Origin: an uncultured Candidatus Saccharibacteria bacterium
Lineage (GTDB): Bacteria; Patescibacteriota; Minisyncoccia; Phycocordibacterales; JAKFXT01
Length of the DNA: 64,000 bases
Direction: 5' to 3'
NCBI GenBank assembly: GCA_964385825.1
Contig: CAYLPX010000001.1
Span: 271,959 to 335,958, forward strand
In this document: in pieces, positions 13,903 through 54,561 of the stretch
Layout of the letters: every line of letters starts with the position of its first letter
How positions within the stretch are numbered: position 1 is the stretch's first letter
Translations under genes and position numbers: made by a program
Notes under the pieces: model-generated
The model's input: the letters and a program-made list of their open reading frames with translations, nothing else
What the model was told of the DNA's origin: nothing
Databases searched by the model: none

Positions 13903-14012
13903 AGGTTTCTTGTATTAAAAATACAAGCTAGTAAACCTGCATTAGCTCCTCGGCTCGGAAATAAAAGAGGTTACTTTTTTATTTCTCTCGCTCTACGTCG
14001 CGAATAAAAAAC

Positions 14013-14043
14013 AGCCCAAGCGCTCCCGCGCTTGGGCTGTTTG
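14013..14043 (-). terminator. Intrinsic terminator of the GC-rich lipoprotein gene (cagcccaagcgc-TCCC-gcgcttgggctg)
   Basis: 12-bp perfect stem; A6 on the plus strand gives a T-run on the minus transcript. Confidence 0.75.
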
Positions 14044-14057
14044 CATCCGGACCACCC

Positions 14058-14657
14058 CTACGTTCGCTTCGGCTGTCGGCTGGAGAGGTAAAGCCAAACG
14101 GCGAAGCCTCCGGCAGCAAAGCCGAAGACGAGAGTGGCCACGGCTAGGCCAAAACCACCGACCATCGCCTTGAATTCAGGAGTGAAAACATCCACCCTAT
14201 TTTCAACCGGCGGAGCCGAGGTGAGGGATGTTGTCATCCCTTGCGGCAGTCGCGCTTCGAGCTTGTACTCATTGCTGGTAGGAGCTCCCTCGCCATCCGC
14301 GCTGTCGCCCGCCTTCGCTCCCTTCGCCGAGGAGCCGCCGCCCACGGTCACGTGGTCAATGAAGAAGGTGTAGTGGGTTTCCCCCACCTTCCTGGCAGCA
14401 CTGGTTTCCCAGCCCGCCTTCGGGGCTTTCTGCACCACCTTTTTCCTCGGGTAGACGTCGACGACGTAAGGCGCCGACAAAACCGAGGCTGCGGGGGCTT
14501 TTGCCACCGGAGGTGGGACGGGCTCACTCGGCTGGAATTCGTACGCCGCCGAAGGTGCCGCACGCCGGGTATCCCCGACGGAACCCATCTTGCTGGGACC
14601 GGCACCGGAACAGGCCGCAAGTATCGCGGCCAAAAAGACCGCCAAAAGACTGCGCAT
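14058..14657 (-). CDS. Lipoprotein with C-terminal TM anchor, GC-rich mini-island B
   Basis: ~62% GC with high GC3; GGAGGA ribosome-binding site 7 nt upstream of MRSLLAVFLAAILAAC (lipobox LAAC); Ala/Pro-rich. Confidence 0.6.
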   Translation of the reverse strand: MRSLLAVFLAAILAACSGAGPSKMGSVGDTRRAAPSAAYEFQPSEPVPPPVAKAPAASVLSAPYVVDVYPRKKVVQKAPKAGWETSAARKVGETHYTFFIDHVTVGGGSSAKGAKAGDSADGEGAPTSNEYKLEARLPQGMTTSLTSAPPVENRVDVFTPEFKAMVGGFGLAVATLVFGFAAGGFAVWLYLSSRQPKRT

Positions 14658-14823
14658 GGTGAATCCTCCAAGCAACCCCTACAAGGATTGCTTACAAAAA
14701 AAGAAAAGGTGTTGTAGCACCGTCTAGAGAATAAATTACCACTAAAATACAGAAAGTCAATGGTCTCTCTCTAAGCTAAAAACCTCGCAGGTAAGCCATT
14801 TTTTTGATATTCTTTGGAGTACT

Positions 14824-16959
14824 ATGGATGAAAAATTCCTCAAACCGTATAACGGATCTGAAGTTGAACCCCGCATATATAAAGCGTGGGAGGAATCTGG
14901 CTACTTCAACCCAGACAAACTCCCTGGTGAGCGGAGTGAAGCATATACCATCATTATGCCCCCACCGAATGCTAATGGGTCACTCCACGCTGGGCATGCT
15001 GTATTCGTAACTATTGAAGACCTGCTTATACGCTATAACCGTATGAAGGGCCTTAGGACCCTATGGCTCCCAGGAGCTGACCATGCTGGCTTTGAAACAC
15101 AGGTAGTGTATGAGAAAAAACTAGAGAAAGAGGGTCGCTCACGTTTTGAAATGACGCCAGAGGAACTTCGTGCGGAAATACTAGAATTCACCCTTGCTAA
15201 TAAAACCTTCATGGAAGGACAACTTAAGGCACTCGGCGCATCATGCGACTGGTCGCGTGAGAAGTTTACCCTGGACAAAGACATAGAAAAGGTTGTGTAT
15301 GGAACTTTCAAACAACTTCATGACGACAACCTTCTTTATCGTGGTAAACGTATTGTGAACTGGTGCGCCAAACACCAAACATCGCTTTCCGAGCTTGAAA
15401 CCGAATACAAAGAAAAGTCAGATCCCTTCTACTATTTCAAATACGGACCCTTCACCATCGGTACCGCGCGACCTGAAACAAAGTTCGGTGACAAGTATGT
15501 GGTGATGCATCCAGAAGACAAGCGCTATATGGAATATGCAAACGGACAAATGATTGAGCTGGAATGGATCAATGGACCTATTACTGCCACCATTATCAAA
15601 GACGAAGCTATCGACATGGAATTCGGTACGGGTGTTATGACCATTACTCCATGGCATGATGAAGTGGATTTTGGTATTGCCGAGCGCCATGAGTTAGATA
15701 AAGAACAAGTCATAGACCTGCGTGGTAAACTTTTGCCTATTGCCGGAGAGTTCGCTGGCATGAAAATAGCAGAGGCTCGCGGCAAAATAGTTGAAAAATT
15801 AAAAGAAAAGGGGCTACTGGTAAAAGTAGACGAAGTCTACAAGCATAATGTAAAAGTTTGCTACAAATGTGAGCAAACTATTGAACCACAAATACTCCCT
15901 CAATGGTTCGTAAAGATGAAACCACTTGCAGACGCGGTACTGGAGCGTATTGAAAATGACGAAGTAGCTTTCTATTCCGACAATTACAAAAAGATTTTGG
16001 TTAACTGGCTCACCAACATTACCGACTGGAACATTAGCCGCCAGATAGCGTGGGGTATTCCTATCCCCATAAAGTTTTGTGATGCTTGTGATACGTCATA
16101 TGTTGATATAGAAGATACACTCACGACTTGCGAGCACTGCCAGGGCGAACTACGCAAAGAACAAGATACCTTTGATACTTGGTTTTCCTCTGGTCAGTGG
16201 CCATTTGCCACTCTTGGCTACCCCAATAGTGAGGACTACCGAACTTTTTATCCCACACAAGTGATGGAAACTGCAGGTGACATCATCTTCTTCTGGGTGG
16301 CGCGCATGCTCATGCTTGGACTTTACCGGACTGGACAACTCCCCTTCACTACCGTATACCTCCACGGCACCGTGACGGCACGTGATGGCAAAAAAATGTC
16401 TAAGTCTAAGGGCAATGCGACCAGCCCCCTTGAACTAACTGAAAAGTATGGCACTGATGCCCTACGTATGGCCCTCATTATCGGCAACACTCCCGGAACA
16501 CCCACCGCACTTTATGAAGAGAAAATAAAAGCCTACAAACTCTTTGCTAACAAAATCTGGAACATCACCCGCTTTATTCTTACTAGCAACAAGGGAGTTG
16601 ATCTGCATGAGAAGCCAACGCTTACTGGTGGATCTGTTGACATCATGGCTCAGCTAGCAGAACTTATTCGTGACGTAACACTTGATATTGAAAACTATCG
16701 TTTTTACTTAGCTGGTGAAAAACTCTACCATTATGTGTGGCACACCTTTGCTGATGTGATACTAGAATCATGTAAAGATGAACTCAAAAATGGGACACCA
16801 GAGAAAAAATATGAAGTACAGTGGCTTCTCAACCACATACTCACCGTAGTCCTAAAACTCCTACACCCCTTCATGCCCTTCATAACCGAAGAAATTTGGA
16901 GTAGCTTACCCACAGAAAACAAACAAATGCTCATCGTGGAGCCTTGGCCTACGGTATAA
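14824..16959 (+). CDS. valS: Valine--tRNA ligase, short form without C-terminal coiled-coil
   Basis: HIGH-type motif (LHAGH), KMSKS, ValRS-specific DTWFSSGQWPF. Confidence 0.9.
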   Translation: MDEKFLKPYNGSEVEPRIYKAWEESGYFNPDKLPGERSEAYTIIMPPPNANGSLHAGHAVFVTIEDLLIRYNRMKGLRTLWLPGADHAGFETQVVYEKKLEKEGRSRFEMTPEELRAEILEFTLANKTFMEGQLKALGASCDWSREKFTLDKDIEKVVYGTFKQLHDDNLLYRGKRIVNWCAKHQTSLSELETEYKEKSDPFYYFKYGPFTIGTARPETKFGDKYVVMHPEDKRYMEYANGQMIELEWINGPITATIIKDEAIDMEFGTGVMTITPWHDEVDFGIAERHELDKEQVIDLRGKLLPIAGEFAGMKIAEARGKIVEKLKEKGLLVKVDEVYKHNVKVCYKCEQTIEPQILPQWFVKMKPLADAVLERIENDEVAFYSDNYKKILVNWLTNITDWNISRQIAWGIPIPIKFCDACDTSYVDIEDTLTTCEHCQGELRKEQDTFDTWFSSGQWPFATLGYPNSEDYRTFYPTQVMETAGDIIFFWVARMLMLGLYRTGQLPFTTVYLHGTVTARDGKKMSKSKGNATSPLELTEKYGTDALRMALIIGNTPGTPTALYEEKIKAYKLFANKIWNITRFILTSNKGVDLHEKPTLTGGSVDIMAQLAELIRDVTLDIENYRFYLAGEKLYHYVWHTFADVILESCKDELKNGTPEKKYEVQWLLNHILTVVLKLLHPFMPFITEEIWSSLPTENKQMLIVEPWPTV

Positions 16960-17034: not shown

Positions 17035-17754
17035 ATGCCCCATCTATCTCCACTCACCTTCTTACTTGCGTTCCTAGGAGGTATTCTTCCTGCATTTCTA
17101 TGGTTAGTATTTTGGCTTCGCGAAGATAGACTTGACCCCGAGCCTCGCGATCTCCTAATTGCCACCTTTGCTGCTGGCATGGTAGCAACTCTCGTTGCCC
17201 TTATTACTGAAGGGGTATTACGAACTAAGTTCCCCAGCTTTGCCACAGACCAAGAGTTAAGTCAGATAGGCCTTATCCTTTGGGCGGGAGTAGAAGAGTT
17301 AGCCAAGTTTGGGGCCGCTTTTTTCATTGTCCTCAAACGACGAGAAAATGATGAGCCAATCGATAACATGATTTATCTAATTACCGCGGCGCTCGGATTC
17401 GCAGCCCTTGAAAACGCACTTTTCCTCCTTGACCCACTTTCCAAAGGTTATTACTTCAAAACACTTATAACCTCAGATATGCGCTTCCTCGGTTCAACTC
17501 TCCTTCATGTCGTATCCTCAGCTACCGTGGGTATAGCTATGGCTTTTGCATTTTGCAAACTTCCTCATATTCGCACACGATACACCGCAATCGGCCTTGT
17601 CCTCGCAACTGTATTGCATACACTCTTTAACTTATTTATACTTAGAAGTAGCGACAATCTTATTTCTGTCTTTGTAGTTCTCTGGGTTGGCGTCATTATT
17701 TTGCTTTTGTTCTTTGAGCGCGTAAAGCGTATCAACAAAAGCTGTGTCTACTAA
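17035..17754 (+). CDS. PrsW-family intramembrane metalloprotease
   Basis: EExxK (VEELAK), FxxxE/N (FAALEN), conserved His; multi-TM. Confidence 0.6.
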   Translation: MPHLSPLTFLLAFLGGILPAFLWLVFWLREDRLDPEPRDLLIATFAAGMVATLVALITEGVLRTKFPSFATDQELSQIGLILWAGVEELAKFGAAFFIVLKRRENDEPIDNMIYLITAALGFAALENALFLLDPLSKGYYFKTLITSDMRFLGSTLLHVVSSATVGIAMAFAFCKLPHIRTRYTAIGLVLATVLHTLFNLFILRSSDNLISVFVVLWVGVIILLLFFERVKRINKSCVY

Positions 17755-17760
17755 TACTTT

Positions 17761-18228
17761 ATGATGGAAAAACCAAAAAGATCTTTTTTTGACCGCCTAA
17801 CTGGGGTTGTAAATATGGACCATGAGCACGATGAAGATACCGAGGAGACTGAGGCTACGACTGAATCCTCTACTGCCTGGATGGATGAGGATAATGCCGT
17901 GGGTCAGCTCAATGTCGACGTCTACCAAACCCCCGACGCCATCTATATCAAAGCTTTTGTGGCCGGTGTAAAGCCAGAAGATTTAGATATCTCTATTACC
18001 CGTGATTTGGTAACCATTAACGGGAAAAGACTTGAGGACACCACTATCAAAGAAAGCGATCACTTCTTAAGCGAGCTATATTGGGGTGAGTTTGCTCGCT
18101 CTATAGTCCTTCCGGCTGAAATAGAAGCTGACGAAGCCGAAGCTTCCGAGCGGCATGGGCTTCTTGTTATTAAACTCCCTAAGATAGATAAAGACAAACA
18201 AACCCGTCTTCGCGTCAAAGCAAACTAA
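17761..18228 (+). CDS. Hsp20 / alpha-crystallin family small heat-shock protein
   Basis: Alpha-crystallin domain (VDVYQTPDAIYIKAFVAGVKPEDLDISI...VTINGKR); acidic N-terminus. Confidence 0.85.
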   Translation: MMEKPKRSFFDRLTGVVNMDHEHDEDTEETEATTESSTAWMDEDNAVGQLNVDVYQTPDAIYIKAFVAGVKPEDLDISITRDLVTINGKRLEDTTIKESDHFLSELYWGEFARSIVLPAEIEADEAEASERHGLLVIKLPKIDKDKQTRLRVKAN

Positions 18229-18233
18229 CACCT

Positions 18234-18524
18234 ATGGAATACGACGGAATAACTTTTAAAGAAGATGCTCCGCCACCAAGCGAAGCAATACTTGAAGCAC
18301 AAGCAAAAAAAGATACTAGCCTTGCAAGCTGGCTAGTAAAACATGGGATCGCAAAAGATGAAGCTGTAGCTAAAAAAGTCTTATTTATTGGAACTATCGT
18401 CTTTTTCGTTTTGGCTTTTGTGCCCTTCTTATACACCGGAATTACATTACTTCACCCACGCCCTCTTTTTGATAAAGATACTGGCTCAGCCTTCACTAAC
18501 AAGCCTCCCTATGCAGCCTTCTAA
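18234..18524 (+). CDS. Hypothetical small membrane protein
   Basis: 96 aa with one TM helix. Confidence 0.4.
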   Translation: MEYDGITFKEDAPPPSEAILEAQAKKDTSLASWLVKHGIAKDEAVAKKVLFIGTIVFFVLAFVPFLYTGITLLHPRPLFDKDTGSAFTNKPPYAAF

Positions 18525-18531
18525 TACTAAA

Positions 18532-19155
18532 ATGTCTCCCGTTATTCGCCCACATAATCAAGGTTTTTCGCTTATTGAACTTTTAGTCGTATTGGCCATT
18601 TTAAGCCTACTTTTCACAACTGTCTTTTCGCTCCTTAACTCTTCACAAGAAAGAGCTCGTGATGCAAAGCGTATTGCTGACATGAAGCGTATTCAATTAG
18701 CCGTTGAGCGATACTATGATGACTATGGACACTACCCTGACACCAACGGGCAGATTGCTTGCTTTGATTGCGGTAGTTTTTACAATACCCCTATAGTCAA
18801 TCCCGCGGCAACTGATATTCGTGCGGCCCTCCTGCCATATCTTAAAACCCCTCCAACAGACCCCCTCCCCTGGTCATCGCGCGGCGAGGCTGGATATCTG
18901 TATTGGGGACGCAGAAGTAGTTTTCAAATTACCTCTTTTTGGAATCCTGAAAATATGTTCAACTACCCAACCAGCATGAGCTACAACTGGTGGTGGTGTA
19001 ATTCTATTTCAGCCTCTGGTCAATGTGTACAGCATCCTCTAAACACAAGTGTGGTTAATTTTGCCTTTCTTGGCGCTGGAATCTGCTCAGACGGCTTTTG
19101 TAACGAATGGGGCGATCAGTGTATTGGGGGCAGGCCCACTACCTATTGCCAATAA
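18532..19155 (+). CDS. Type IV pilin-like protein with Cys-rich C-terminal domain
   Basis: Prepilin signal HNQGFSLIELLVVLAILSLL; about 10 cysteines in the C-terminal half. Confidence 0.6.
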   Translation: MSPVIRPHNQGFSLIELLVVLAILSLLFTTVFSLLNSSQERARDAKRIADMKRIQLAVERYYDDYGHYPDTNGQIACFDCGSFYNTPIVNPAATDIRAALLPYLKTPPTDPLPWSSRGEAGYLYWGRRSSFQITSFWNPENMFNYPTSMSYNWWWCNSISASGQCVQHPLNTSVVNFAFLGAGICSDGFCNEWGDQCIGGRPTTYCQ

Positions 19156-28357: not shown

Positions 28358-28453
28358 AGGTTTTTGGTATTGCTACTTTGTAATTAGCCATAAGTATAGC
28401 AAGAGAGTGCTTAATGCAAAGAGGAAAAGTGGGCTTCTACAGAGCCACTTTAT

Positions 28454-28463
28454 GTGCTATAAT
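28454..28463 (+). promoter_or_regulatory. Extended -10 (TGcTATAAT) for rnpB
   Basis: tgctataat 7 nt upstream of the predicted P1 5' end. Confidence 0.5.
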
Positions 28464-28468
28464 ATAAA

Positions 28469-28822
28469 GGTTCTTGTTGGATAACCGCGCTTAGCCCTTT
28501 TGGGGCTTAGTGAGGAAAGTCCGGGCATAGCTAGGCTTTAGCCTAGAGCACGGTAGCGGGTAACCCCCGTCTGTGGCAACACAAGAGGTGCGAACAGTGA
28601 CGCTGATGTCGAAAGGCTAGGTTCCCTCTTATTTAGTTAAGGGAAAATCTTGTTGAAAAACAAGGGTGCAACGGCAAAATCCTTACCACTATGCAAGGCC
28701 GTGCTCTGGGGCAACCCAGAGAGTGCCGCTTGAGCCCATCAGCAATGGTGGGCCTAGATAAATGGTTATCGTTTTGTTTCGCAAGAAATGAAATACAGAA
28801 CCCGGCTTATAGGCAGGAACAC
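28469..28822 (+). ncRNA. rnpB: RNase P RNA (bacterial type A)
   Basis: P4 halves GAGGAAAGTCCGGGC and ACAGAACCCGGCTTA; GCTTGAGCC...GGGCCTAGATAAATGG matches the E. coli P15-P18 region; P1 pairs ggttcttg with caggaac. Confidence 0.85.
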
Positions 28823-28830
28823 AACAATGG

Positions 28831-29310: not shown

Positions 29311-29670
29311 ATGTACAAAGCTATCATTCGCCGGCGCGGGAGTAATGAACTTGCCACTGTCCCTGCTGATTCGCCCAGCCTCCGCTGCGCCTTCATCATG
29401 CACGAGGATAAGACCTGGTCCCCCGCGACCAACCTTCGACTCCGAATCCCCGTCAACCAGCACAAGGAAGTTGATCTTGGCAACGAATCGGGAGAAGCGG
29501 TTGAGGTCCTCCTGATCTACAACAGTGCGACAAACGAAGGTGAGCAGTCCATGATTTGCTTCGCCCAAAACTTCGGCCGGAGAGAGATTGAGGTCCGGGA
29601 GACTCTCAAGGGACTCGCGGCCAGAAACAGGACTCCCCCACTCGTCACTGCTCACGGCTGGCCCCAGTAG
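29311..29670 (+). CDS. Hypothetical protein, GC-rich mini-island E
   Basis: GC3 about 70% in this frame; AGGGAG ribosome-binding site; terminator at 29685-29715; the antisense ORF is rejected. Confidence 0.5.
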   Translation: MYKAIIRRRGSNELATVPADSPSLRCAFIMHEDKTWSPATNLRLRIPVNQHKEVDLGNESGEAVEVLLIYNSATNEGEQSMICFAQNFGRREIEVRETLKGLAARNRTPPLVTAHGWPQ

Positions 29671-29684
29671 GGCTTCTGTGAGCA

Positions 29685-29715
29685 CAAAAAACCGCCGGTC
29701 CCCCGGCGGTTTTTC
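29685..29715 (+). terminator. Intrinsic terminator (accgccgg-TCCC-ccggcggt plus T-tract)
   Basis: aaaaaaccgccggtcccccggcggtttttc. Confidence 0.8.
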
Positions 29716-29889
29716 AATTTCTTATAGCTAAAATGTAGACAAATTTTATTTTAGTATCCTAACATTGTGGGTAGTTGTGGATAAAAGGGTGTATTAATGC
29801 TTATATGGCTTATAATGAACCAAGTAAGCATAAGCGCATGCAATGCTTGCGGATAAAAAGCCACAGTTGATATTTGAGAGACAAAATCG

Positions 29890-29972
29890 TACCGGTGACG
29901 GGATTTGAACCCGCAATCCAGCCAGGAGCTAGTTCCGTAAACTAGTGCGTATACCAATTTCGCCACACCGGC
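29890..29972 (-). tRNA. Class II (long variable arm) tRNA, Leu-like body; anticodon reads ACG in my manual fold; identity uncertain
   Basis: Acceptor GCCGGTG/CACCGGT (G1-U72), D arm GCG-AAATTGGTATA-CGC, anticodon stem CTAGT/ACTAG with loop TTACGGA, 14-nt variable arm, T arm GCGGG-TTCAAAT-CCCGT, discriminator A. Confidence 0.6.
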
Positions 29973-30075
29973 ATGATTTTGCCTCCCAATTGTTCGTTGT
30001 GGCTTTTTATATTCTTTATTCTTTTGTCAAAACCCCAAACTGCTGCAGTTTGGGGTTTACTCTTTATTCTATGTC

Positions 30076-36956: not shown

Positions 36957-37220
36957 TCAGCGAATGAGCCTTGGCCTCCTCTTGCTGTCCCCGAACCCCT
37001 TGGCGGGGTCAAACTTGTGCTTGGGGTGGTCGTAGTACGGCTGGTGACTGCCAGCCTGCGCTACGTCACTAACCACCCCATCCTGTGCATGCTGGCGCGC
37101 CATTTTGGCGGCCACATCAACATGCCCCGCATCCTCCGGGTCAAAGGCCACGTAGGCCTGTCCCGGAAAATGGAACGCCTTAGGAGACGCATTCGCCCCC
37201 AACTTCTTTGATTCCCCCAT
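36957..37220 (-). CDS. Hypothetical small protein, GC-rich mini-island F
   Basis: AAGGAGG ribosome-binding site 6 nt upstream of ATG; GC-rich; own terminator. Confidence 0.5.
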   Translation of the reverse strand: MGESKKLGANASPKAFHFPGQAYVAFDPEDAGHVDVAAKMARQHAQDGVVSDVAQAGSHQPYYDHPKHKFDPAKGFGDSKRRPRLIR

Positions 37221-37359
37221 GGATCCCTCCTTGGAAAAGGGGTTAGAAAAAACGAAATGAGCCCTAAGCTCCGAAATATATTATATCATATATATACAAA
37301 AAAGCAAGTCATCACGACCTGCTCGGGAATTCAGAAAATCTCATTTCGCTAAGGTATTT

Positions 37360-37379
37360 GCGGAGACGGAGAGATTTGG
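37360..37379. repeat. Imperfect copy of a tRNA-Ser 3' end (gcggagacggagagatttgg) joined to a GGTCAGGAATATTTT motif
   Basis: 17/19 match to 37412-37430 (tRNA-Ser GGA) and to the Ser(CGA) 3' end; ggtcaggaatatttt also occurs at 4723-4737 as ggtcagggatatttt. Confidence 0.7.
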
Positions 37380-37413
37380 TCAGGAATATTTTAGGATCCC
37401 TCCCATACAGAGC

Positions 37414-37498
37414 GGAGGCGGCGAGATTTGAACTCGCGAAACCTTTCGGTTTACACGCTTTCCAAGCGTGCGCACTAGACCACTATGCGACGCCTCCG
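37414..37498 (-). tRNA. tRNA-Ser (anticodon GGA), long variable arm
   Basis: Acceptor GGAGGCG/CGCCTCC, D stem GCAT/GTGC, anticodon stem CACGC/GCGTG with loop TTGGAAA, variable arm TAAACCGAAAGGTTTC, T arm GCGAG-TTCAAAT-CTCGC. Confidence 0.8.
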
Positions 37499-37526
37499 CT
37501 CTGTAAAGGATTTGAAGAATCGTACT

Positions 37527-37600
37527 ATGCGCACTAGGTCACAGATAATTTTTTGCTAAAAATTTCTGCGACCCCGTCTCGGCTCGTCAGCCTCCGACTC
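37527..37600 (+). repeat. tRNA-associated GGTCAC element, copy E2
   Basis: ggtcacagataattttttgctaaaaatttctgcgaccccgtctcggctcgtcagcctccg is about 85% identical to E1; preceded by a scrambled copy of the tRNA-Ser D-arm region (actatgcgcactag). Confidence 0.7.
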
Positions 37601-37664
37601 TTCGGGTTTTACATTCAACCCGAAGCACTATACGACGTCTCCAGTCTGGCAAAGATAACAGAAA

Positions 37665-37692
37665 ATTAGAAATAAAAGAAGCCGCGCTTACG
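37665..37692 (-). terminator. Intrinsic terminator (gccgcgc-TTAC-gcgcggc) for the GC-rich gene 37716-38141
   Basis: GC stem with A-tract on the plus side. Confidence 0.75.
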
Positions 37693-37715
37693 CGCGGCCT
37701 TACCCTACCCGACTT

Positions 37716-38141
37716 TCAGCCGACAAACTTGCGAAGGTCGACCGTAGTTGCACGAATCGACGGCCTTCGGGAACCAAGCTGCCTCTTCGGCTTCACCTTG
37801 ATGGGAGGTGCCGGAACAGCTTTCCCGTCGAGTAAACTTGCAGAAAGCAGTGACATCGACCCACGCGGGAGCTGATCAAGGAACCGAGCAAACCATGGCT
37901 GCTTCATGTTCCACCGCCGCTCTTCCGCATCGATGATCTCGAGCACGGGATCGCGTGTCCCCAAAGCATCGCTCGTCACTGGGAGTTCGAGCCCCATGCT
38001 GTCCATCGCAACCAGAGGTTCCTCTGGCTCGTCCGCATCAGGAAGAACCACCGACACGTATCCATCCGGGAATCGGCTCGATACCCTGTTCCAGCGCCCG
38101 GTACTGCTGTTCCACACTTGATGCATGGGAATTCCCCCCAA
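37716..38141 (-). CDS. Hypothetical protein, GC-rich mini-island G
   Basis: GC-rich ORF with terminator; start MGGIP or MHQVW. Confidence 0.45.
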   Translation of the reverse strand: MGGIPMHQVWNSSTGRWNRVSSRFPDGYVSVVLPDADEPEEPLVAMDSMGLELPVTSDALGTRDPVLEIIDAEERRWNMKQPWFARFLDQLPRGSMSLLSASLLDGKAVPAPPIKVKPKRQLGSRRPSIRATTVDLRKFVG

Positions 38142-39893: not shown

Positions 39894-40436
39894 ATGGAAA
39901 CGACACAAGCACTGAAAGTAGCAACTGTCGTTTTCCCTCTTCGGAAAACGGCAGATGGCACCGAGGAGGTTCTGCTCGGGGAAAAAACTAAGAAAATTGG
40001 TATTGGTTGCCCCACGGGACCAGGTGGCATGGTTAACGAAAACGAAACAATACGACAAGCGGCCGCCCGCGAGACCTTTGAAGAAACCGGCCTCATTGTG
40101 GCTCCAAACAGCCTACGGTATGTTGGGGTGATTACGTTCAATAATTACAAAACCACGGACACCGAGCCATTCCGTATTCGTGTTCACTTTTTCCTCGCCC
40201 CAGAATGGTCCGGTACTGTCATCGAAAGGGACGATGGCTTCAAAAACCTGATCTGGTACGAAGTGAATGATTTGCCTCTCAGTCGCATGATGGCGGCTGA
40301 CCCACACTTCGTACCACGAATGCTTGCTGGTGAGAAAGTAATTGGCTCTGCTCACTATCTCGGCGACCAACGTACGCTCTACCCAAACACCAACGTCTTT
40401 GCTCGCAGTGTCATTGGCGAGTTTGATGTGGAGTAA
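39894..40436 (+). CDS. NUDIX hydrolase
   Basis: Nudix box GGMVNENETIRQAAARETFEETGL. Confidence 0.8.
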   Translation: METTQALKVATVVFPLRKTADGTEEVLLGEKTKKIGIGCPTGPGGMVNENETIRQAAARETFEETGLIVAPNSLRYVGVITFNNYKTTDTEPFRIRVHFFLAPEWSGTVIERDDGFKNLIWYEVNDLPLSRMMAADPHFVPRMLAGEKVIGSAHYLGDQRTLYPNTNVFARSVIGEFDVE

Positions 40437-40451
40437 GGGTCCCACGGGAGC

Positions 40452-40483
40452 AAAAAGCCGACGCATCGCGCCGGCTTTTTTTA
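40452..40483 (+). terminator. Intrinsic terminator after the NUDIX gene
   Basis: aaagccgacgcatcgcgccggcttttttt. Confidence 0.7.
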
Positions 40484-40557
40484 TAATATACGGGGTATTG
40501 CTTTTTAATGGAAATATGTTATAAATTACCCCAGGACCACATGGCCAAGGAGGCCAA

Positions 40558-40741
40558 GATGAAAACTGTTCTGATTTTGGCACTGGTGGGGGTCATCTCC
40601 GCCTGTGCCGAACCGACCATGCGAAGCACGGTCACCCCCGTCACCGGGGAAAAGACCCCGGAGGGAGGAGTGCGGTTCAACCCTGCACAATCAAGCCCTC
40701 CACCCATCGTCGTCATCGGGGAGAAGGAGGCAAGGCGCTAG
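40558..40741 (+). CDS. Small lipoprotein (61 aa), GC-rich mini-island H
   Basis: AAGGAGG ribosome-binding site; MKTVLILALVGVISAC lipobox; Pro-rich tail; perfect terminator 40763-40795. Confidence 0.5.
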
Positions 40742-40762
40742 GGGAAGTAAAACCCTTCTCGC

Positions 40763-40795
40763 AAAAGGCCGATGCGCGTGCGCATCGGCCTTTTT
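40763..40795 (+). terminator. Intrinsic terminator (aggccgatgcgc-GT-gcgcatcggcct plus T5)
   Basis: 12-bp perfect stem. Confidence 0.8.
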
Positions 40796-40823
40796 ACTTT
40801 TTATATTTTCCCTCCCCCTACAT

Positions 40824-42473
40824 TTAATATCCCATTCCTCCCATTCCAGGATTTCCACCCTCTGCTTTCTCCTCCTTTGGTTCATCAGTAATAGCTACTT
40901 CCGTAGTGAGCATAATAGCGGCTGCAGAACAAGCGTTCTCAACCCCAGAGCGAGTTACTTTGACCGGATCTATAATCCCGGACGCAATCATATCGGGAAC
41001 CATTTCATCCATAGCCGCATCATATCCAGCATTCCCCTTAGCTTCCTTTACCTTCTCAACAATAACCGCGCCATCATCCTTACCCGCATTAATAGCAATC
41101 TGACGAAGTGGCATTTCAAGTGCTCGCAGTACTATCCCCACACCCACTTCAAACTCCTTAGCAAAACTTGTTCCCTCACTTTTTGGCATCTTACTTGCTA
41201 CTTTTTCAGCTGCCTTGATAAGAGCAACTCCACCACCAACTACAATCCCCTCTTCTATCGCGGCCTTAGTCGCATTAACAGCGTCCTCAATCTTAAGCTT
41301 AAGATACTTCATCTCGGTTTCAGTCGCCGCTCCAACTTTAATAACAGCCACACCCCCTGAGAGCTTTGCAATACGCTCATCTATCTTTTCAATATCATAT
41401 TTAGAAGTTGTCCCTTTCTTCTGGGTCTTAAGCGATGCAATACGGGCGTCAATATCTGAACGCTTACCCTTACCACCCACCACAATAGTATTGTCTTTAG
41501 TTGCAATCACTTTATTCGCACGACCGAGCATACTGATTTCTGCTTTCTCAAGAGTGATACCCGTCTCATCAGTTATCACTGTAGCCCCGATAGTTGTTGC
41601 GAGGTCCTGAAGTAATTCCTTTTTGCGATCACCATACCCTGGTGCCTTCACGGCCAAAATATTAAACGTACCGCGAATCTTATTTAGTACAAACGCGGTG
41701 AGAGCTTCACCTTCCACTTCTTCGGCAACAATCACAAGCTCCTTCTTGCCGGAGTTCGCGATTTGTTCAAGCAAAGGAAGTATTTCTTTAAGGGTAGAAA
41801 TCTTTTTGTCAGTAAGGAGTACATAGGCATCTTTGTAGACTGCTTCCATACGCTCCCCGTCAGTAACCATGTAGGCTGAAACGTATCCACGATCGAACTG
41901 TAACCCTTCGACAAACTCAGCCTCAACACCGAAAGAGTGTGATTCCTCAACTGTTACTACTCCATCCTTACCCACCTTCTCAATAGTGTCAGCAATAATA
42001 GTACCAATCTCGCGACTCTCAGCTGAGATGGTTGCTACCTGCATAATATCTTCCTTACCTTTAACTGGCTTAGCCATAGCTTTAAGAGCCTGAACTACTG
42101 CTTCGCTAGCCTTCTCAATACCCATACGGATACCCATAGCATTCACCCCCATGGCAGTTTGCTTCACACCCTCTTTTACAATCGCTTGCATGAGTACTGT
42201 TGCGGTAGTAGTACCATCTCCAGCTGCATCATTAGTTTTGTTGGCTACTTCTTTCGCAATTTCAGCACCCATATTCTCAAACTTATCTTTGAGCACAATT
42301 TCGCGAGCAATAGACACCCCGTCATTTGTGATAGTGGGAGCTCCGTATCCTTTATCAAACACCACATTACGCCCTCGAGGACCAATGGTTATTTTAACGG
42401 CATCAGCCACAGCATCCACTCCTTTCATAAGAGCTTCACGCGCCTTTTCGTGATAGAGAATTTGTTTTGCCAT
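40824..42473 (-). CDS. groEL: Chaperonin GroEL
   Basis: Full-length Hsp60 with a C-terminal GGM-type repeat tail. Confidence 0.97.
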   Translation of the reverse strand: MAKQILYHEKAREALMKGVDAVADAVKITIGPRGRNVVFDKGYGAPTITNDGVSIAREIVLKDKFENMGAEIAKEVANKTNDAAGDGTTTATVLMQAIVKEGVKQTAMGVNAMGIRMGIEKASEAVVQALKAMAKPVKGKEDIMQVATISAESREIGTIIADTIEKVGKDGVVTVEESHSFGVEAEFVEGLQFDRGYVSAYMVTDGERMEAVYKDAYVLLTDKKISTLKEILPLLEQIANSGKKELVIVAEEVEGEALTAFVLNKIRGTFNILAVKAPGYGDRKKELLQDLATTIGATVITDETGITLEKAEISMLGRANKVIATKDNTIVVGGKGKRSDIDARIASLKTQKKGTTSKYDIEKIDERIAKLSGGVAVIKVGAATETEMKYLKLKIEDAVNATKAAIEEGIVVGGGVALIKAAEKVASKMPKSEGTSFAKEFEVGVGIVLRALEMPLRQIAINAGKDDGAVIVEKVKEAKGNAGYDAAMDEMVPDMIASGIIDPVKVTRSGVENACSAAAIMLTTEVAITDEPKEEKAEGGNPGMGGMGY

Positions 42474-52146: not shown

Positions 52147-53231
52147 CGCCCCAGTTTTTCCAACCGAAGCCCCAAGAGCCTGATCGCCAGGCGCTTGGGG
52201 TTTTCCTTTTTTTCAAAGAAAGGTAAGAGAAGTTTTAGTGCTGTCAAAGAAAGTTGGCGAGAAGAGGTAATCGGGGTACTAAGAGTAATCCCTCTGGTTT
52301 TCGTTTCAAAATCAGAAAAACGAGCAATAAGTGTTACCTTCCTAGCTTCTTTAAAACCTGCTTTTTGTAATTTGCCAAAAAGGGTTTCTGCCGTCCTTTC
52401 CATATACTTAGTTGCCTCTTTAAGCGTTGCAATATCGTCATGAAACGTTTCTTCTTCTCCTATTGATTTCGCCACAGCTGCTTCTGTTTGTATTTCCCGA
52501 TCATCCTCTCCAAGCGCGTATTGCTCTAACTTCTTGCTATATACCCCTAGAGTCTTTTTTAGCGTTTCTCCGTTAGCTTTTCGTATATCGTGCACTGTAA
52601 AAATTTTCATTCGTTTTAAAACCTCATCCGTTTTTTCACCAACACCAGGAAGCACCGCAGCCTTAAGAGGAGCAAGAAAATTCAAAGTCTCATGAGATGG
52701 GACTACTACCAGCCCAAGTGGCTTTTTCATATCCGAGGCAATTTTTGCTACCAGCTTATTTTTCCCAATACCAATTGAACAGGTAAGCTTTTCTGTTTCT
52801 AATATTTCTGCCTGTATCTGTTTAGCTAGTACTGCTGCTTCCTTAAAAGTTTTGCAAAATGAAAGATCTGCATACCCCTCATCAATACTCGTTTCCTCAA
52901 ACACCGGTGCATACTTCTTAATTATTTTAAACACTTTTTGCGAGACTGCTCCATACTTACGAAAAGCAGGAGTGATGAAAATAACCTCAGGGTTTCCAGA
53001 CTTTTTTGCAGCTTGGCTTAGCTTCCACGCGCGAGTAATAGGCAGCCCTGCATGTAGGCCATAAGCACGTGCCAGATAATTCGCGGTAGCAATAACTCCG
53101 CGCCCCCTCCCACCCTCAGGATCTGCTCCTACAGCAATAGGCATTCCGGCCAAATACGGTTTATCCCGCTCCTCCACCGAAGCAAAGAAAGCATTCATAT
53201 CTATATGTGCAATAATTTTCTCTATTTTCAC
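52143..53231 (-). CDS. dinB: DNA polymerase IV (DinB)
   Basis: IAHIDMNAFFASVE N-terminus; Y-family palm blocks. Confidence 0.9.
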   Translation of the reverse strand: MKIEKIIAHIDMNAFFASVEERDKPYLAGMPIAVGADPEGGRGRGVIATANYLARAYGLHAGLPITRAWKLSQAAKKSGNPEVIFITPAFRKYGAVSQKVFKIIKKYAPVFEETSIDEGYADLSFCKTFKEAAVLAKQIQAEILETEKLTCSIGIGKNKLVAKIASDMKKPLGLVVVPSHETLNFLAPLKAAVLPGVGEKTDEVLKRMKIFTVHDIRKANGETLKKTLGVYSKKLEQYALGEDDREIQTEAAVAKSIGEEETFHDDIATLKEATKYMERTAETLFGKLQKAGFKEARKVTLIARFSDFETKTRGITLSTPITSSRQLSLTALKLLLPFFEKKENPKRLAIRLLGLRLEKLGR

Positions 53232-53267
53232 CTACTCAGTATAGTTAAAAACTAATTTTAAAATAAC

Positions 53268-53297
53268 GTTGACCCATCACTACTTCTAAGCTACAGT
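53268..53297 (+). promoter_or_regulatory. Candidate sigma70 promoter (TTGACC, 18-nt spacer, TACAGT) for the GC-rich gene
   Basis: Hexamers upstream of the GAGGAGG ribosome-binding site. Confidence 0.35.
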
Positions 53298-53327
53298 TGG
53301 GGTCGCTTGTTCACTGAGGAGGCCACC

Positions 53328-53765
53328 ATGTGGCAACGCATCAAAAAGGCTTGGCGCGTACTACGTGCGCCCCATGAGCAGACTGCGAAATGGGTGTATG
53401 TCGCCCACCCCATCCGTGGAGACATTGCGGGGAACCTGCAAAAGCTGATAGAGATCCGAAGGGAGATCATTTAGCAAGGGCACATCCCCGTCATCCCCTA
53501 CTTGGCCCCGCTTGAAATCCTCCGCGATTACATCGAGGCGGAGCGGACCCAAGGGATGATGATCAACTTCGCCTACCTTCGCTCCGGTATGGTGGATGAA
53601 CTCTGGCTCTATGGGGATACAATATCTAACGGCATGTGGGCCGAAATCAAAACGGCCATCACGATGGGAATCCGGGTTGTTCCAAAGACCCCAGGCACTC
53701 TGCACTGTTGCCAAGAAGCGCAAGATCGAGGGATCATTGCGCAATTCATGCGAAGTGTCCAGTAA
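53328..53765 (+). pseudogene. GC-rich gene (mini-island L) interrupted by a single in-frame TAG at 53472-53474
   Basis: A 48-codon ORF and a 87-codon ORF share one frame with uniformly high GC3, a GAGGAGG ribosome-binding site, and a terminator at 53775-53808; the conceptual product is 145 aa (VYVAHPIRGD...). Confidence 0.4.
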
Positions 53766-53774
53766 ACCCTTCTT

Positions 53775-53808
53775 CACGAAGCCCCGCTCATGCGGGGCCC
53801 TTTTTTTA
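53775..53808 (+). terminator. Intrinsic terminator (gccccgc-TCAT-gcggggc plus T7)
   Basis: GC stem plus T-run. Confidence 0.8.
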
Positions 53809-54561
53809 CTTTAAAGTAAACGCAGCTTTCACGGTCACCATCACCTCCTTCTTAATATCCCCTGTTGCATATGCCCCGTAATCAGACACTTCAACAGAAT
53901 TAAGTGGGAGTACTTGCACCACACCACTTGAAGCGTTCTTTAATTGACCAACCATCTTACCCGACGCTCCAGCAATCTTTTCAGCCCTGGCTCTAGCATC
54001 CTTAATGGCATCAGAAAGTAATGAAACTCGCAAATCACTTAACTTTGAATAGTAGTATTCGAGTCCCGCCGTGGTGAATACAACTCCATCATCAACTAAA
54101 GTTCTTGTCTGTTTGGCAAGCCCCGTTATCTTATCCACCTCACTTGAATCAACAGTAACCTCTTGGCTCAGCGTATACCTTTTTTCAACATTTGGGTTTG
54201 TATTGTTGCTGTAAGAGTAATCTTCATTCATAGAAATGGCCGCAATGGTTAGTTCCTCATCCTTAACCCCATTCTTGTCCATAAATACTTTAACCAGAGC
54301 CTCATCTTTTGCCATTGCCGCATACCCAGACTTGAGGTTACTAAGAGGTACGGTCCGACTAAAACTTGCCCGCCACTTCACCGTATCCGAAGTTACCTCT
54401 TGTTTAGCAGAACCAGTAACTGAAAGAGAATCATCTAAGAGACGTACTTTATAAAAGGCATATGCGCCAACCGCAGTACTTAGTACAAGTGCAAGCCCAA
54501 TAACTATAGGGGCAAATAGTAATGAGGGAGAAGCACCGAGTTTTATATGTGAATCTTGCAT
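53806..54561 (-). CDS. SIMPL domain protein (DUF541)
   Basis: N-terminal TM; SIMPL-like blocks (YTLSQEVTVDSSEVDK). Confidence 0.7.
   Translation of the reverse strand: MQDSHIKLGASPSLLFAPIVIGLALVLSTAVGAYAFYKVRLLDDSLSVTGSAKQEVTSDTVKWRASFSRTVPLSNLKSGYAAMAKDEALVKVFMDKNGVKDEELTIAAISMNEDYSYSNNTNPNVEKRYTLSQEVTVDSSEVDKITGLAKQTRTLVDDGVVFTTAGLEYYYSKLSDLRVSLLSDAIKDARARAEKIAGASGKMVGQLKNASSGVVQVLPLNSVEVSDYGAYATGDIKKEVMVTVKAAFTLK

Follow-up and report, generated by a model that had tools for sequence, protein, structure and literature searches.

A class II tRNA gene with the arginine anticodon ACG lies at 29890–29972, on the minus strand, in the 64-kb window (i.e. the whole stretch of DNA that was analysed), between the genes for ribonucleotide reductase (RNR) and for RNase P RNA. 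The tRNA is a genuine cloverleaf, sequence comparison strongly supports a leucine-type body, and the codons that it would read (CGU, CGC and CGA) still mean arginine in this genome. From these observations we hypothesize, with modest confidence, that it is an anticodon-shifted tRNA-Leu, recently acquired, which behaves as a tolerated, weak or near-silent tRNA of the missense-suppressor type.

The gene was identified with ARAGORN (29889–29972 on the minus strand, anticodon acg), the Rfam model RF00005, a leucine covariance model and a comparison with 23 leucine tRNAs. The RF00005 match to 29890–29972 is full-length (model positions 1–71) and scores 54.3 bits (gathering score 29, E=6.6e-9), with a posterior probability of about 1 across the anticodon arm, where UUACGGA is placed as the loop; ARAGORN and RF00005 both put the anticodon at 29936–29938 (minus strand), with U33 before it and G37 after it. 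The sequence thus belongs to RF00005, with a conserved cloverleaf and a score above the gathering threshold. The RNA is 83 nt long up to the discriminator, encodes no 3′ CCA and parses as GCCGGUG UG GCG AAAUUGGUAUA CGC A CUAGU UUACGGA ACUAG CUCCUGGCUGGAUU GCGGG UUCAAAU CCCGU CACCGGU A. The 7-bp acceptor stem, with a G1·U72 wobble, is followed by U8 and G9, the D stem has 3 bp (GCG/CGC) and the D loop 11 nt (AAAUUGGUAUA), the anticodon stem has 5 bp, the 14-nt variable region (CUCCUGGCUGGAUU) ends in U, and the canonical T arm leads into the acceptor stem and discriminator A73. All helices are paired, the only wobbles being the G·U pairs at 1:72 and 49:65, and U8, A14, G18G19, U33, the T-loop and A73 are all intact. 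Folded in isolation, the sequence does not take a cloverleaf as its thermodynamic minimum-free-energy structure, which is commonplace among tRNAs and has no bearing on the call. We also observed that the 3′ CCA is missing from all eight tRNA genes of the window but is encoded by several of the tRNAs from other metagenome contigs.

An earlier note on this DNA had described a class II tRNA with anticodon ACG, a 3-bp GCG/CGC D stem, a 14-nt variable arm and a discriminator A, and had proposed ARAGORN and covariance-model folding as checks. Both tools return this class and anticodon, the structural elements are all present in the parse, and the strand, which the note had left unstated, is minus. 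The possibility of a mis-fold, also raised there, is refuted, as two independent tools give the same anticodon and neither assigns a standard Leu, Ser or Tyr anticodon; a pseudogene, raised as well, appears improbable from a sequence with no structural degradation and a normal score. Two structural candidates were rejected: a structural pseudogene, with broken helices, lost conserved nucleotides or a low score, does not describe the ACG tRNA, and an allo-tRNA (8/4 or 9/3, i.e. an acceptor stem of 8–9 bp with a T stem of 4–3 bp) is ruled out by the canonical 7/5 stems. The tRNA is identical across six independently assembled contigs (four from JGI and two from Logan) from six samples, which rules out an assembly error; at 99.99% identity or more these contigs represent one strain.

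Searching the metagenome collection and IMG/VR with a pattern made of the D-arm and T-loop of the ACG tRNA, with the anticodon left free, we retrieved 23 metagenome tRNAs and one IMG/VR viral tRNA. All 24 are tRNA-Leu, with the anticodons GAG, CAG, CAA, UAG or UAA, and share with the ACG tRNA an identical D-arm, GCG-AAAUUGGUAUA-CGC. A73 is found in 23 of the 23 reference Leu tRNAs, as it is in the ACG tRNA; positions 26, 32, 33, 37 and 38 lie inside the range of these references, the variable region of 14 nt compares with 11–16 nt, and the two wobble pairs recur among them (G1·U72 in 2 and G49·U65 in 9 of the 23). The sole deviation among the positions checked is in the anticodon, where the A35 that is invariant in the 23 Leu tRNAs is replaced by C, so that the leucine anticodon pattern (NAG or YAA, with A35) is absent. 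The remaining leucine features, i.e. A73 and the class II form (3-bp D stem, A14 A15, the placement of G18G19, A20a, a long variable arm and U48), are all present. A covariance model (R1) built from the 23 Leu tRNAs gives the ACG tRNA 84.6 bits, a score somewhat inflated because the training set was selected for its D-arm and T-loop; Leu tRNAs, two held-out genes included, score 58.6–96.4 bits, class II Ser tRNAs at most 45.4 and Arg tRNAs at most 36.7. In annotated phage genomes the only matches to the ACG tRNA are annotated tRNA-Leu. Pattern retrieval, position comparison, covariance model and phage matches, together with the differences from Arg tRNAs described below, strongly support the Leu-like body that had been described earlier.

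The six Arg tRNAs that we checked (two of this lineage, one from the window and one from the relative L020, plus four on unrelated metagenome contigs) are all class I with G18G19-A20, whereas the ACG tRNA has G18G19-U20-A20a. It has the arginine anticodon determinants C35 and G36 plus A73, but it lacks A20, a class I body and a short variable loop. In the compilation of Giege and Eriani, bacterial leucine identity lies in A73, tertiary elements of the D- and T-loops and A20a and does not involve the anticodon, and bacterial arginine identity lies in A20, C35, G/U36 and A/G73, with A20 the main determinant in E. coli (PMC9976931). The ACG tRNA holds the full leucine set and three of the four arginine elements, A20 being the one that is missing. 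An unusual class II tRNA-Arg, which had been put forward as an option, is disfavoured by the lack of A20 and by the class I, A20-bearing form of all six Arg tRNAs. Another long-variable-arm tRNA with an anticodon outside Leu, Ser and Tyr was seen on three tRNA-array contigs, L031 (3385–3472, minus strand), L034 (5201–5291) and L049 (1664–1754); it is 88–91 nt long, has the anticodon UAU and A73, combines a 4-bp D stem of class I type with a variable arm that is about 20 nt long, and has an Rfam score of 57.2 bits.

The codons CGU, CGC and CGA are arginine codons in this genome. The FtsZ motif GRRAAEE at window position 2004 does use CGT CGC for conserved arginines, as had been pointed out before. 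Among the roughly 16,300 codons of the window ORFs we counted CGT 221, CGC 176, CGA 99, CGG 55, AGA 76 and AGG 59 times, so that CGT, CGC and CGA make up 3% of all codons. In a Codetta-style test of RNR against 119 homologues, restricted to columns conserved to at least 80%, 30 of the 31 CGT/CGC/CGA codons fall on Arg, one on Lys and none on Leu. In four orthologous genes, the lower-GC relatives have AGA or AGG at 27/79, 23/112 and 8/112 of the sites where the window has CGT, CGC or CGA, and Leu codons at these sites in 2, 0 and 0 cases. The share of CGT+CGC+CGA among the Arg codons of the four genes is highest in the window (0.89, versus 0.83, 0.59 and 0.49 in the relatives), and these codon shares show no host avoidance of CGU, CGC and CGA; nor did we find any CGN codon at a conserved Leu position in the four genes. 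Reassignment of CGN to Leu was considered and rejected, since the codons are abundant, stand at conserved Arg positions and have AGR counterparts in relatives.

Judged from homologues of the adjacent class II RNR, the window belongs to Patescibacteria/Paceibacterota, within the candidate phyla radiation (CPR). Four related lineages have the genes in the same order (RNR, RNase P RNA, TPR membrane protein, MurJ); their RNR proteins are 92% (L022), 88.5% (L050), 76% (L018/L019) and 74% (L020/L021) identical to that of the window. None of the four has a tRNA between the RNR and RNase P RNA genes, and the Leu model, run with filters off, finds no degraded tRNA remnant downstream of RNR in any of them. 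Junction alignment, blastn and GC values delimit a segment, at 29716–30073 with approximate edges, that is missing from the closest relative, L022. It spans about 350 bp and comprises a 14-bp hairpin, the tRNA plus the leader–trailer helix around it and an AT-rich stretch of about 137 bp, with a GC content of 34% in the flanks and 54% in the tRNA. At the L022 junction, a stretch of about 65 bp, with one bidirectional terminator that the window has too, leads from the RNR stop to a convergent ORF rich in GC; in the window the junction alignment places this common terminator at 29687–29714, at the right-hand edge of the extra segment. L022 alone would be compatible with a gain in the window lineage or with a loss in L022, and cannot decide between the two. 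Since L050, L018 and L020 also have no tRNA there, the ACG tRNA is at most as old as the group of the window and L022, and the comparison points firmly to a lineage-specific gene of recent origin. We saw no clade-wide conservation of the ACG tRNA at the syntenic site of the four relatives or in the GTDB species genomes, IMG/VR and the metagenome collection, and no transposase, integrase or synthetase gene lies near it. Among the options listed in the earlier note, a foreign or suppressor-like tRNA is the best supported, as the segment of about 350 bp is absent from all four related lineages.

Several further features of the segment and of the syntenic region were recorded. A direct repeat, TTGTGGATAAAA / TTGCGGATAAAA, lies inside the inserted segment at 29775–29786 and 29847–29858, and the only perfect DnaA-box consensus of the window (TTATCCACA, minus strand) sits in the copy at 29775–29786. 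DnaA near-matches are not enriched window-wide (22 versus 15.6 expected), and the GC skew does not switch at the inserted segment. In L018, an ORF of 511 aa that encodes a Hint (intein/homing-endonuclease) domain is inserted after MurJ (17262–18797, plus strand), and a gene for a ParE-type toxin comes after it; the syntenic region of the window has neither.

The GC-rich island at 29311–29670 (plus strand), to which a link with the ACG tRNA had been suggested, codes for an orphan protein of 119 aa and has 57% GC and a GC3 of 68%. Its copy in L022 has 66% protein identity and differs mostly at third positions (32/21/59), and the ORF on the opposite strand is broken by stops in L022. The orphan has no Pfam match and, among 5.8 billion proteins, no homologue beyond the L022 copy; it is absent from L050, L018 and L020. 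Because the island is common to the window and to L022, which has no tRNA, we rejected it as the source of the tRNA, and the suggested link is unsupported. Other 1-kb bins that are rich in GC (0.50–0.56, versus a background of about 0.43) are found at 14001–15000, 37001–38000, 40001–41000 and 53001–54000, and may contain other genes of foreign or orphan type. A gene for bacterial RNase P RNA of class A (28469–28825, plus strand; 128.9 bits) lies about 1 kb away from the ACG tRNA, with a well-matching promoter-like site just upstream of the RNase P RNA gene (28436–28463). The counterparts of this RNA in L018, L020 and L022 stay below the Rfam gathering score, so the RNase P RNA is divergent in this lineage.

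A 45-nt inverted repeat brackets the ACG tRNA, with the acceptor stem as its inner ends, and the precursor would carry an unusually strong 28-bp leader–trailer helix in two parts. In the predicted structure, the inner 15-bp helix joins a 5′ leader arm (UUGGGAGGCAAAAUC, 29975–29989) to a 3′ trailer arm (GAUUUUGUCUCUCAA, 29874–29888), both placed on the minus strand from the inverted repeat (I1), the fold and the duplex energy; it includes two G·U pairs, which only the tRNA-sense RNA can form. The outer helix, placed from the inverted repeat and the fold, is a perfect 13-bp duplex between a 5′ arm (AUAAAAAGCCACA, 29998–30010) and a 3′ arm (UGUGGCUUUUUAU, 29853–29865), again on the minus strand. 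It is flanked by an A-run and a U-run in the manner of a bidirectional terminator, and the U-run of the 3′ arm gives the whole hairpin the look of a terminator. From the outside in, the precursor is thus predicted to run from the 13-bp helix through an 8×8 internal loop, the 15-bp helix, an A·C mismatch and a U-1:A73 pair into the acceptor stem. The 174-nt unit has a folding energy of -70.7 kcal/mol (z -7.3). The leader–trailer duplex has -37.6 kcal/mol (z -9.9), versus -9.5 to -19.2 kcal/mol for the other seven tRNAs of the window, and is the strongest among the 90 tRNAs of all the loci compared (median -10.2, sd 5.3). Second among these 90 is an ordinary tRNA-Leu(UAG) on an unrelated metagenome contig (L033:8769–8855, minus strand), with a 10-bp leader–trailer helix just outside its encoded CCA; such leader–trailer pairing therefore recurs sporadically among these tRNAs. 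The flanks of the ACG tRNA have no further copies in the 64-kb window or in phage or plasmid records.

Between RNR and the tRNA, right after the RNR stop, a perfect 14-bp hairpin at 30030–30058 is predicted to be the RNR terminator. The copies of a 13-nt direct repeat (TATTCTTTATTCT / TACTCTTTATTCT, at 30010–30022 and 30058–30070) lie on either side of it, from which we suspect that the hairpin module may have been inserted or duplicated. There is no promoter-like site upstream of the ACG tRNA on its own strand; the promoter scan works at chance level in this genome, with 32 matches versus 30–32 expected and a match near about three of the seven ordinary tRNAs.

The anticodon-free pattern brought up no parent tRNA-Leu in the metagenomes and IMG/VR, but ordinary Leu tRNAs only, with a best identity of 66/83; the metagenome collection appears not to include the window's own samples. 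Scanning 185,579 species-representative GTDB genomes for a common Leu D-arm followed by UUACG at the right spacing, we obtained 11 matches, none of them a tRNA, and the same pattern gave three chance matches and no tRNA in IMG/VR; as the pattern demands U32 and a common Leu D-arm, these scans are not exhaustive. A further 16 kb of contig flank contains no tRNAs, hence neither a canonical tRNA-Arg(ACG) nor a leucine parent. We infer that a canonical tRNA-Arg(ACG) is present elsewhere in the genome.

The loop context UACG-G fits the usual deamination of A34 and methylation to m1G37, and an ACG tRNA modified in this way, with I34, would read CGU, CGC and CGA. According to the published bacterial identity rules, leucine would be the main amino acid attached to the matured ACG tRNA, possibly alongside a degree of dual Leu/Arg charging, though CPR synthetases may deviate from the rules of E. 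coli; charging by ArgRS is possible in that C35, G36 and A73 are genuine arginine determinants. Insertion of leucine at CGU, CGC and CGA would make it an Arg-to-Leu missense suppressor, or mistranslating tRNA. As a strong leucine decoder at these codons would be toxic and the host does not avoid them, its output is presumably low, for which the upstream terminator and the locked precursor may account: the 28-bp helix would have to be opened, e.g. by RNase III, to give RNase P access. The ACG tRNA would, on this account, be an add-on and not the housekeeping tRNA-Arg(ACG).

Much of the same evidence could be read as the mark of a silent relic, i.e. a duplicated or imported tRNA-Leu with anticodon mutations that is untranscribed or never matured, leaves translation unaffected and will decay. 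The gene arrived recently and is confined to one strain, a perfect 14-bp terminator hairpin stands directly before it with no promoter-like site upstream on the tRNA strand, the 28-bp helix sequesters leader and trailer and should hinder RNase P, and the host has not shifted away from CGU, CGC and CGA; the authors of tRNAscan-SE, moreover, put some anticodon/isotype conflicts down to silenced or pseudogene copies (PMC8450103). We nevertheless think this unlikely, if the most serious of the alternatives, because stems and conserved tertiary nucleotides are intact, the scores equal those of working tRNAs and the two G·U pairs of the helix fit an RNA-level structure of the sense strand, and the promoter scan is uninformative here (32 matches, 30–32 expected). 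It is more doubtful still that the tRNA is an arginine acceptor of class II, whose C35, G36 and A73, and perhaps A20a in place of A20, would be read by ArgRS, and which would supplement the decoding of CGU, CGC and CGA; as a differently shaped spare it could even escape nucleases aimed at normal tRNA-Arg. C35, G36 and A73 are three documented bacterial arginine determinants, the lineage leans more on CGT, CGC and CGA than any of its relatives (0.89 of Arg codons), and charging with arginine would explain why the gene is tolerated. Yet A20 is lacking in a comparison in which all six Arg tRNAs are class I and have it, the body has not moved from leucine (24 ordinary Leu tRNAs have exactly this D-arm), leucine charging would persist because the known bacterial LeuRS ignores the anticodon, and four related lineages do without the gene.

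We give very little credence to the idea that the unit is above all a hairpin element and not a tRNA for translation, i.e. a module, either like a terminator or palindromic and mobile, that is built around a tRNA-shaped core and has its role at the level of the DNA or in the processing of RNA. A 45-nt inverted repeat around the gene, an outer helix set between an A-run and a U-run like a bidirectional terminator, an adjoining second hairpin between 13-nt direct repeats and the status of the whole block as an indel relative to L022 would suit such an element, but its flanks are unique in the 64-kb window and unmatched in phage and plasmid records, no transposase or integrase is nearby, and the core is a complete, high-scoring tRNA and not a fragment. 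A more speculative form of a functional tRNA, which we consider improbable, is that it is gated: either an Arg-to-Leu mistranslator released conditionally (e.g. by RNase III or under stress), or an ArgRS-charged spare that goes unseen by anticodon-nuclease toxins.

If the ACG tRNA is, as we prefer to think, a weak anticodon-shifted tRNA-Leu, its closest analogue would be the nev-tRNAs of nematodes. These are Leu-derived class II tRNAs with the anticodons CCC (Gly) or UAU (Ile) that have kept their leucine determinants; leucine is the only amino acid with which they are charged, their expression is weak, and in vitro they decode the foreign codon as leucine (Hamashima et al. 2012; PMC3333845). 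The ACG tRNA likewise combines what appears to be a Leu-derived class II body with an anticodon outside Leu, Ser and Tyr, but it is bacterial (CPR), is found in one strain and would target the most used Arg codons. In bacteria, the tRNA-ProX of Streptomyces and Kitasatospora (tRNAProA/N/T) are natural dual-identity mistranslating tRNAs (PMC11415595). The ACG tRNA resembles them in joining the body of one isotype to the anticodon of another. The tRNA-ProX are reportedly a family spread over many species, of class I and described with a dedicated ProRS paralogue; the ACG tRNA, by contrast, has no synthetase gene nearby and no relatives in the collections searched.

Disagreements between anticodon and isotype are flagged by tRNAscan-SE 2.0 ('IPD'), whose authors explain them by gene silencing, lateral transfer or a changed code (PMC8450103), and published readings of such body/anticodon conflicts, including human anticodon variants of tRNA-Leu, tRNA-Ser and tRNA-Ala, extend to mistranslation (PMC11415595). 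The ACG tRNA falls into the same category, in that anticodon and body disagree. Most IPD-type cases, however, are class I or low-scoring, whereas the ACG tRNA couples a high-scoring class II body to the anticodon of a class I family and differs further in its clear insertion history and locked precursor. In laboratory missense-suppressor tRNAs the anticodon of a spare copy changes and its own amino acid is inserted at another codon. Those, however, arise by selection to rescue a mutation, and the four genes compared here show no CGN at conserved Leu positions. The Codetta survey is said to have found reassignments of Arg sense codons in bacteria, with altered tRNAs and in small or low-GC genomes; unlike there, CGT, CGC and CGA are abundant here and stand at conserved Arg positions. 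What is unusual in the present case is a class II scaffold aimed at the commonest Arg codons of the host, together with an exceptionally strong leader–trailer helix.

A mismatch between tRNA body and anticodon is a route of genetic-code drift and of mistranslation, purposeful or accidental, of which there are few natural bacterial examples, and the arrival of this one can be dated from four related lineages without the gene. Should either form of the gated tRNA prove true, it would be a new bacterial use of a class II scaffold with the anticodon of a class I family. If it is charged with arginine, ArgRS would have to accept a class II scaffold, and if it is silent, the gene would offer a clean snapshot of the first step in tRNA anticodon shifting. 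If the ACG tRNA is active, it would be a natural Arg-to-Leu mistranslator in a CPR bacterium with a reduced genome.
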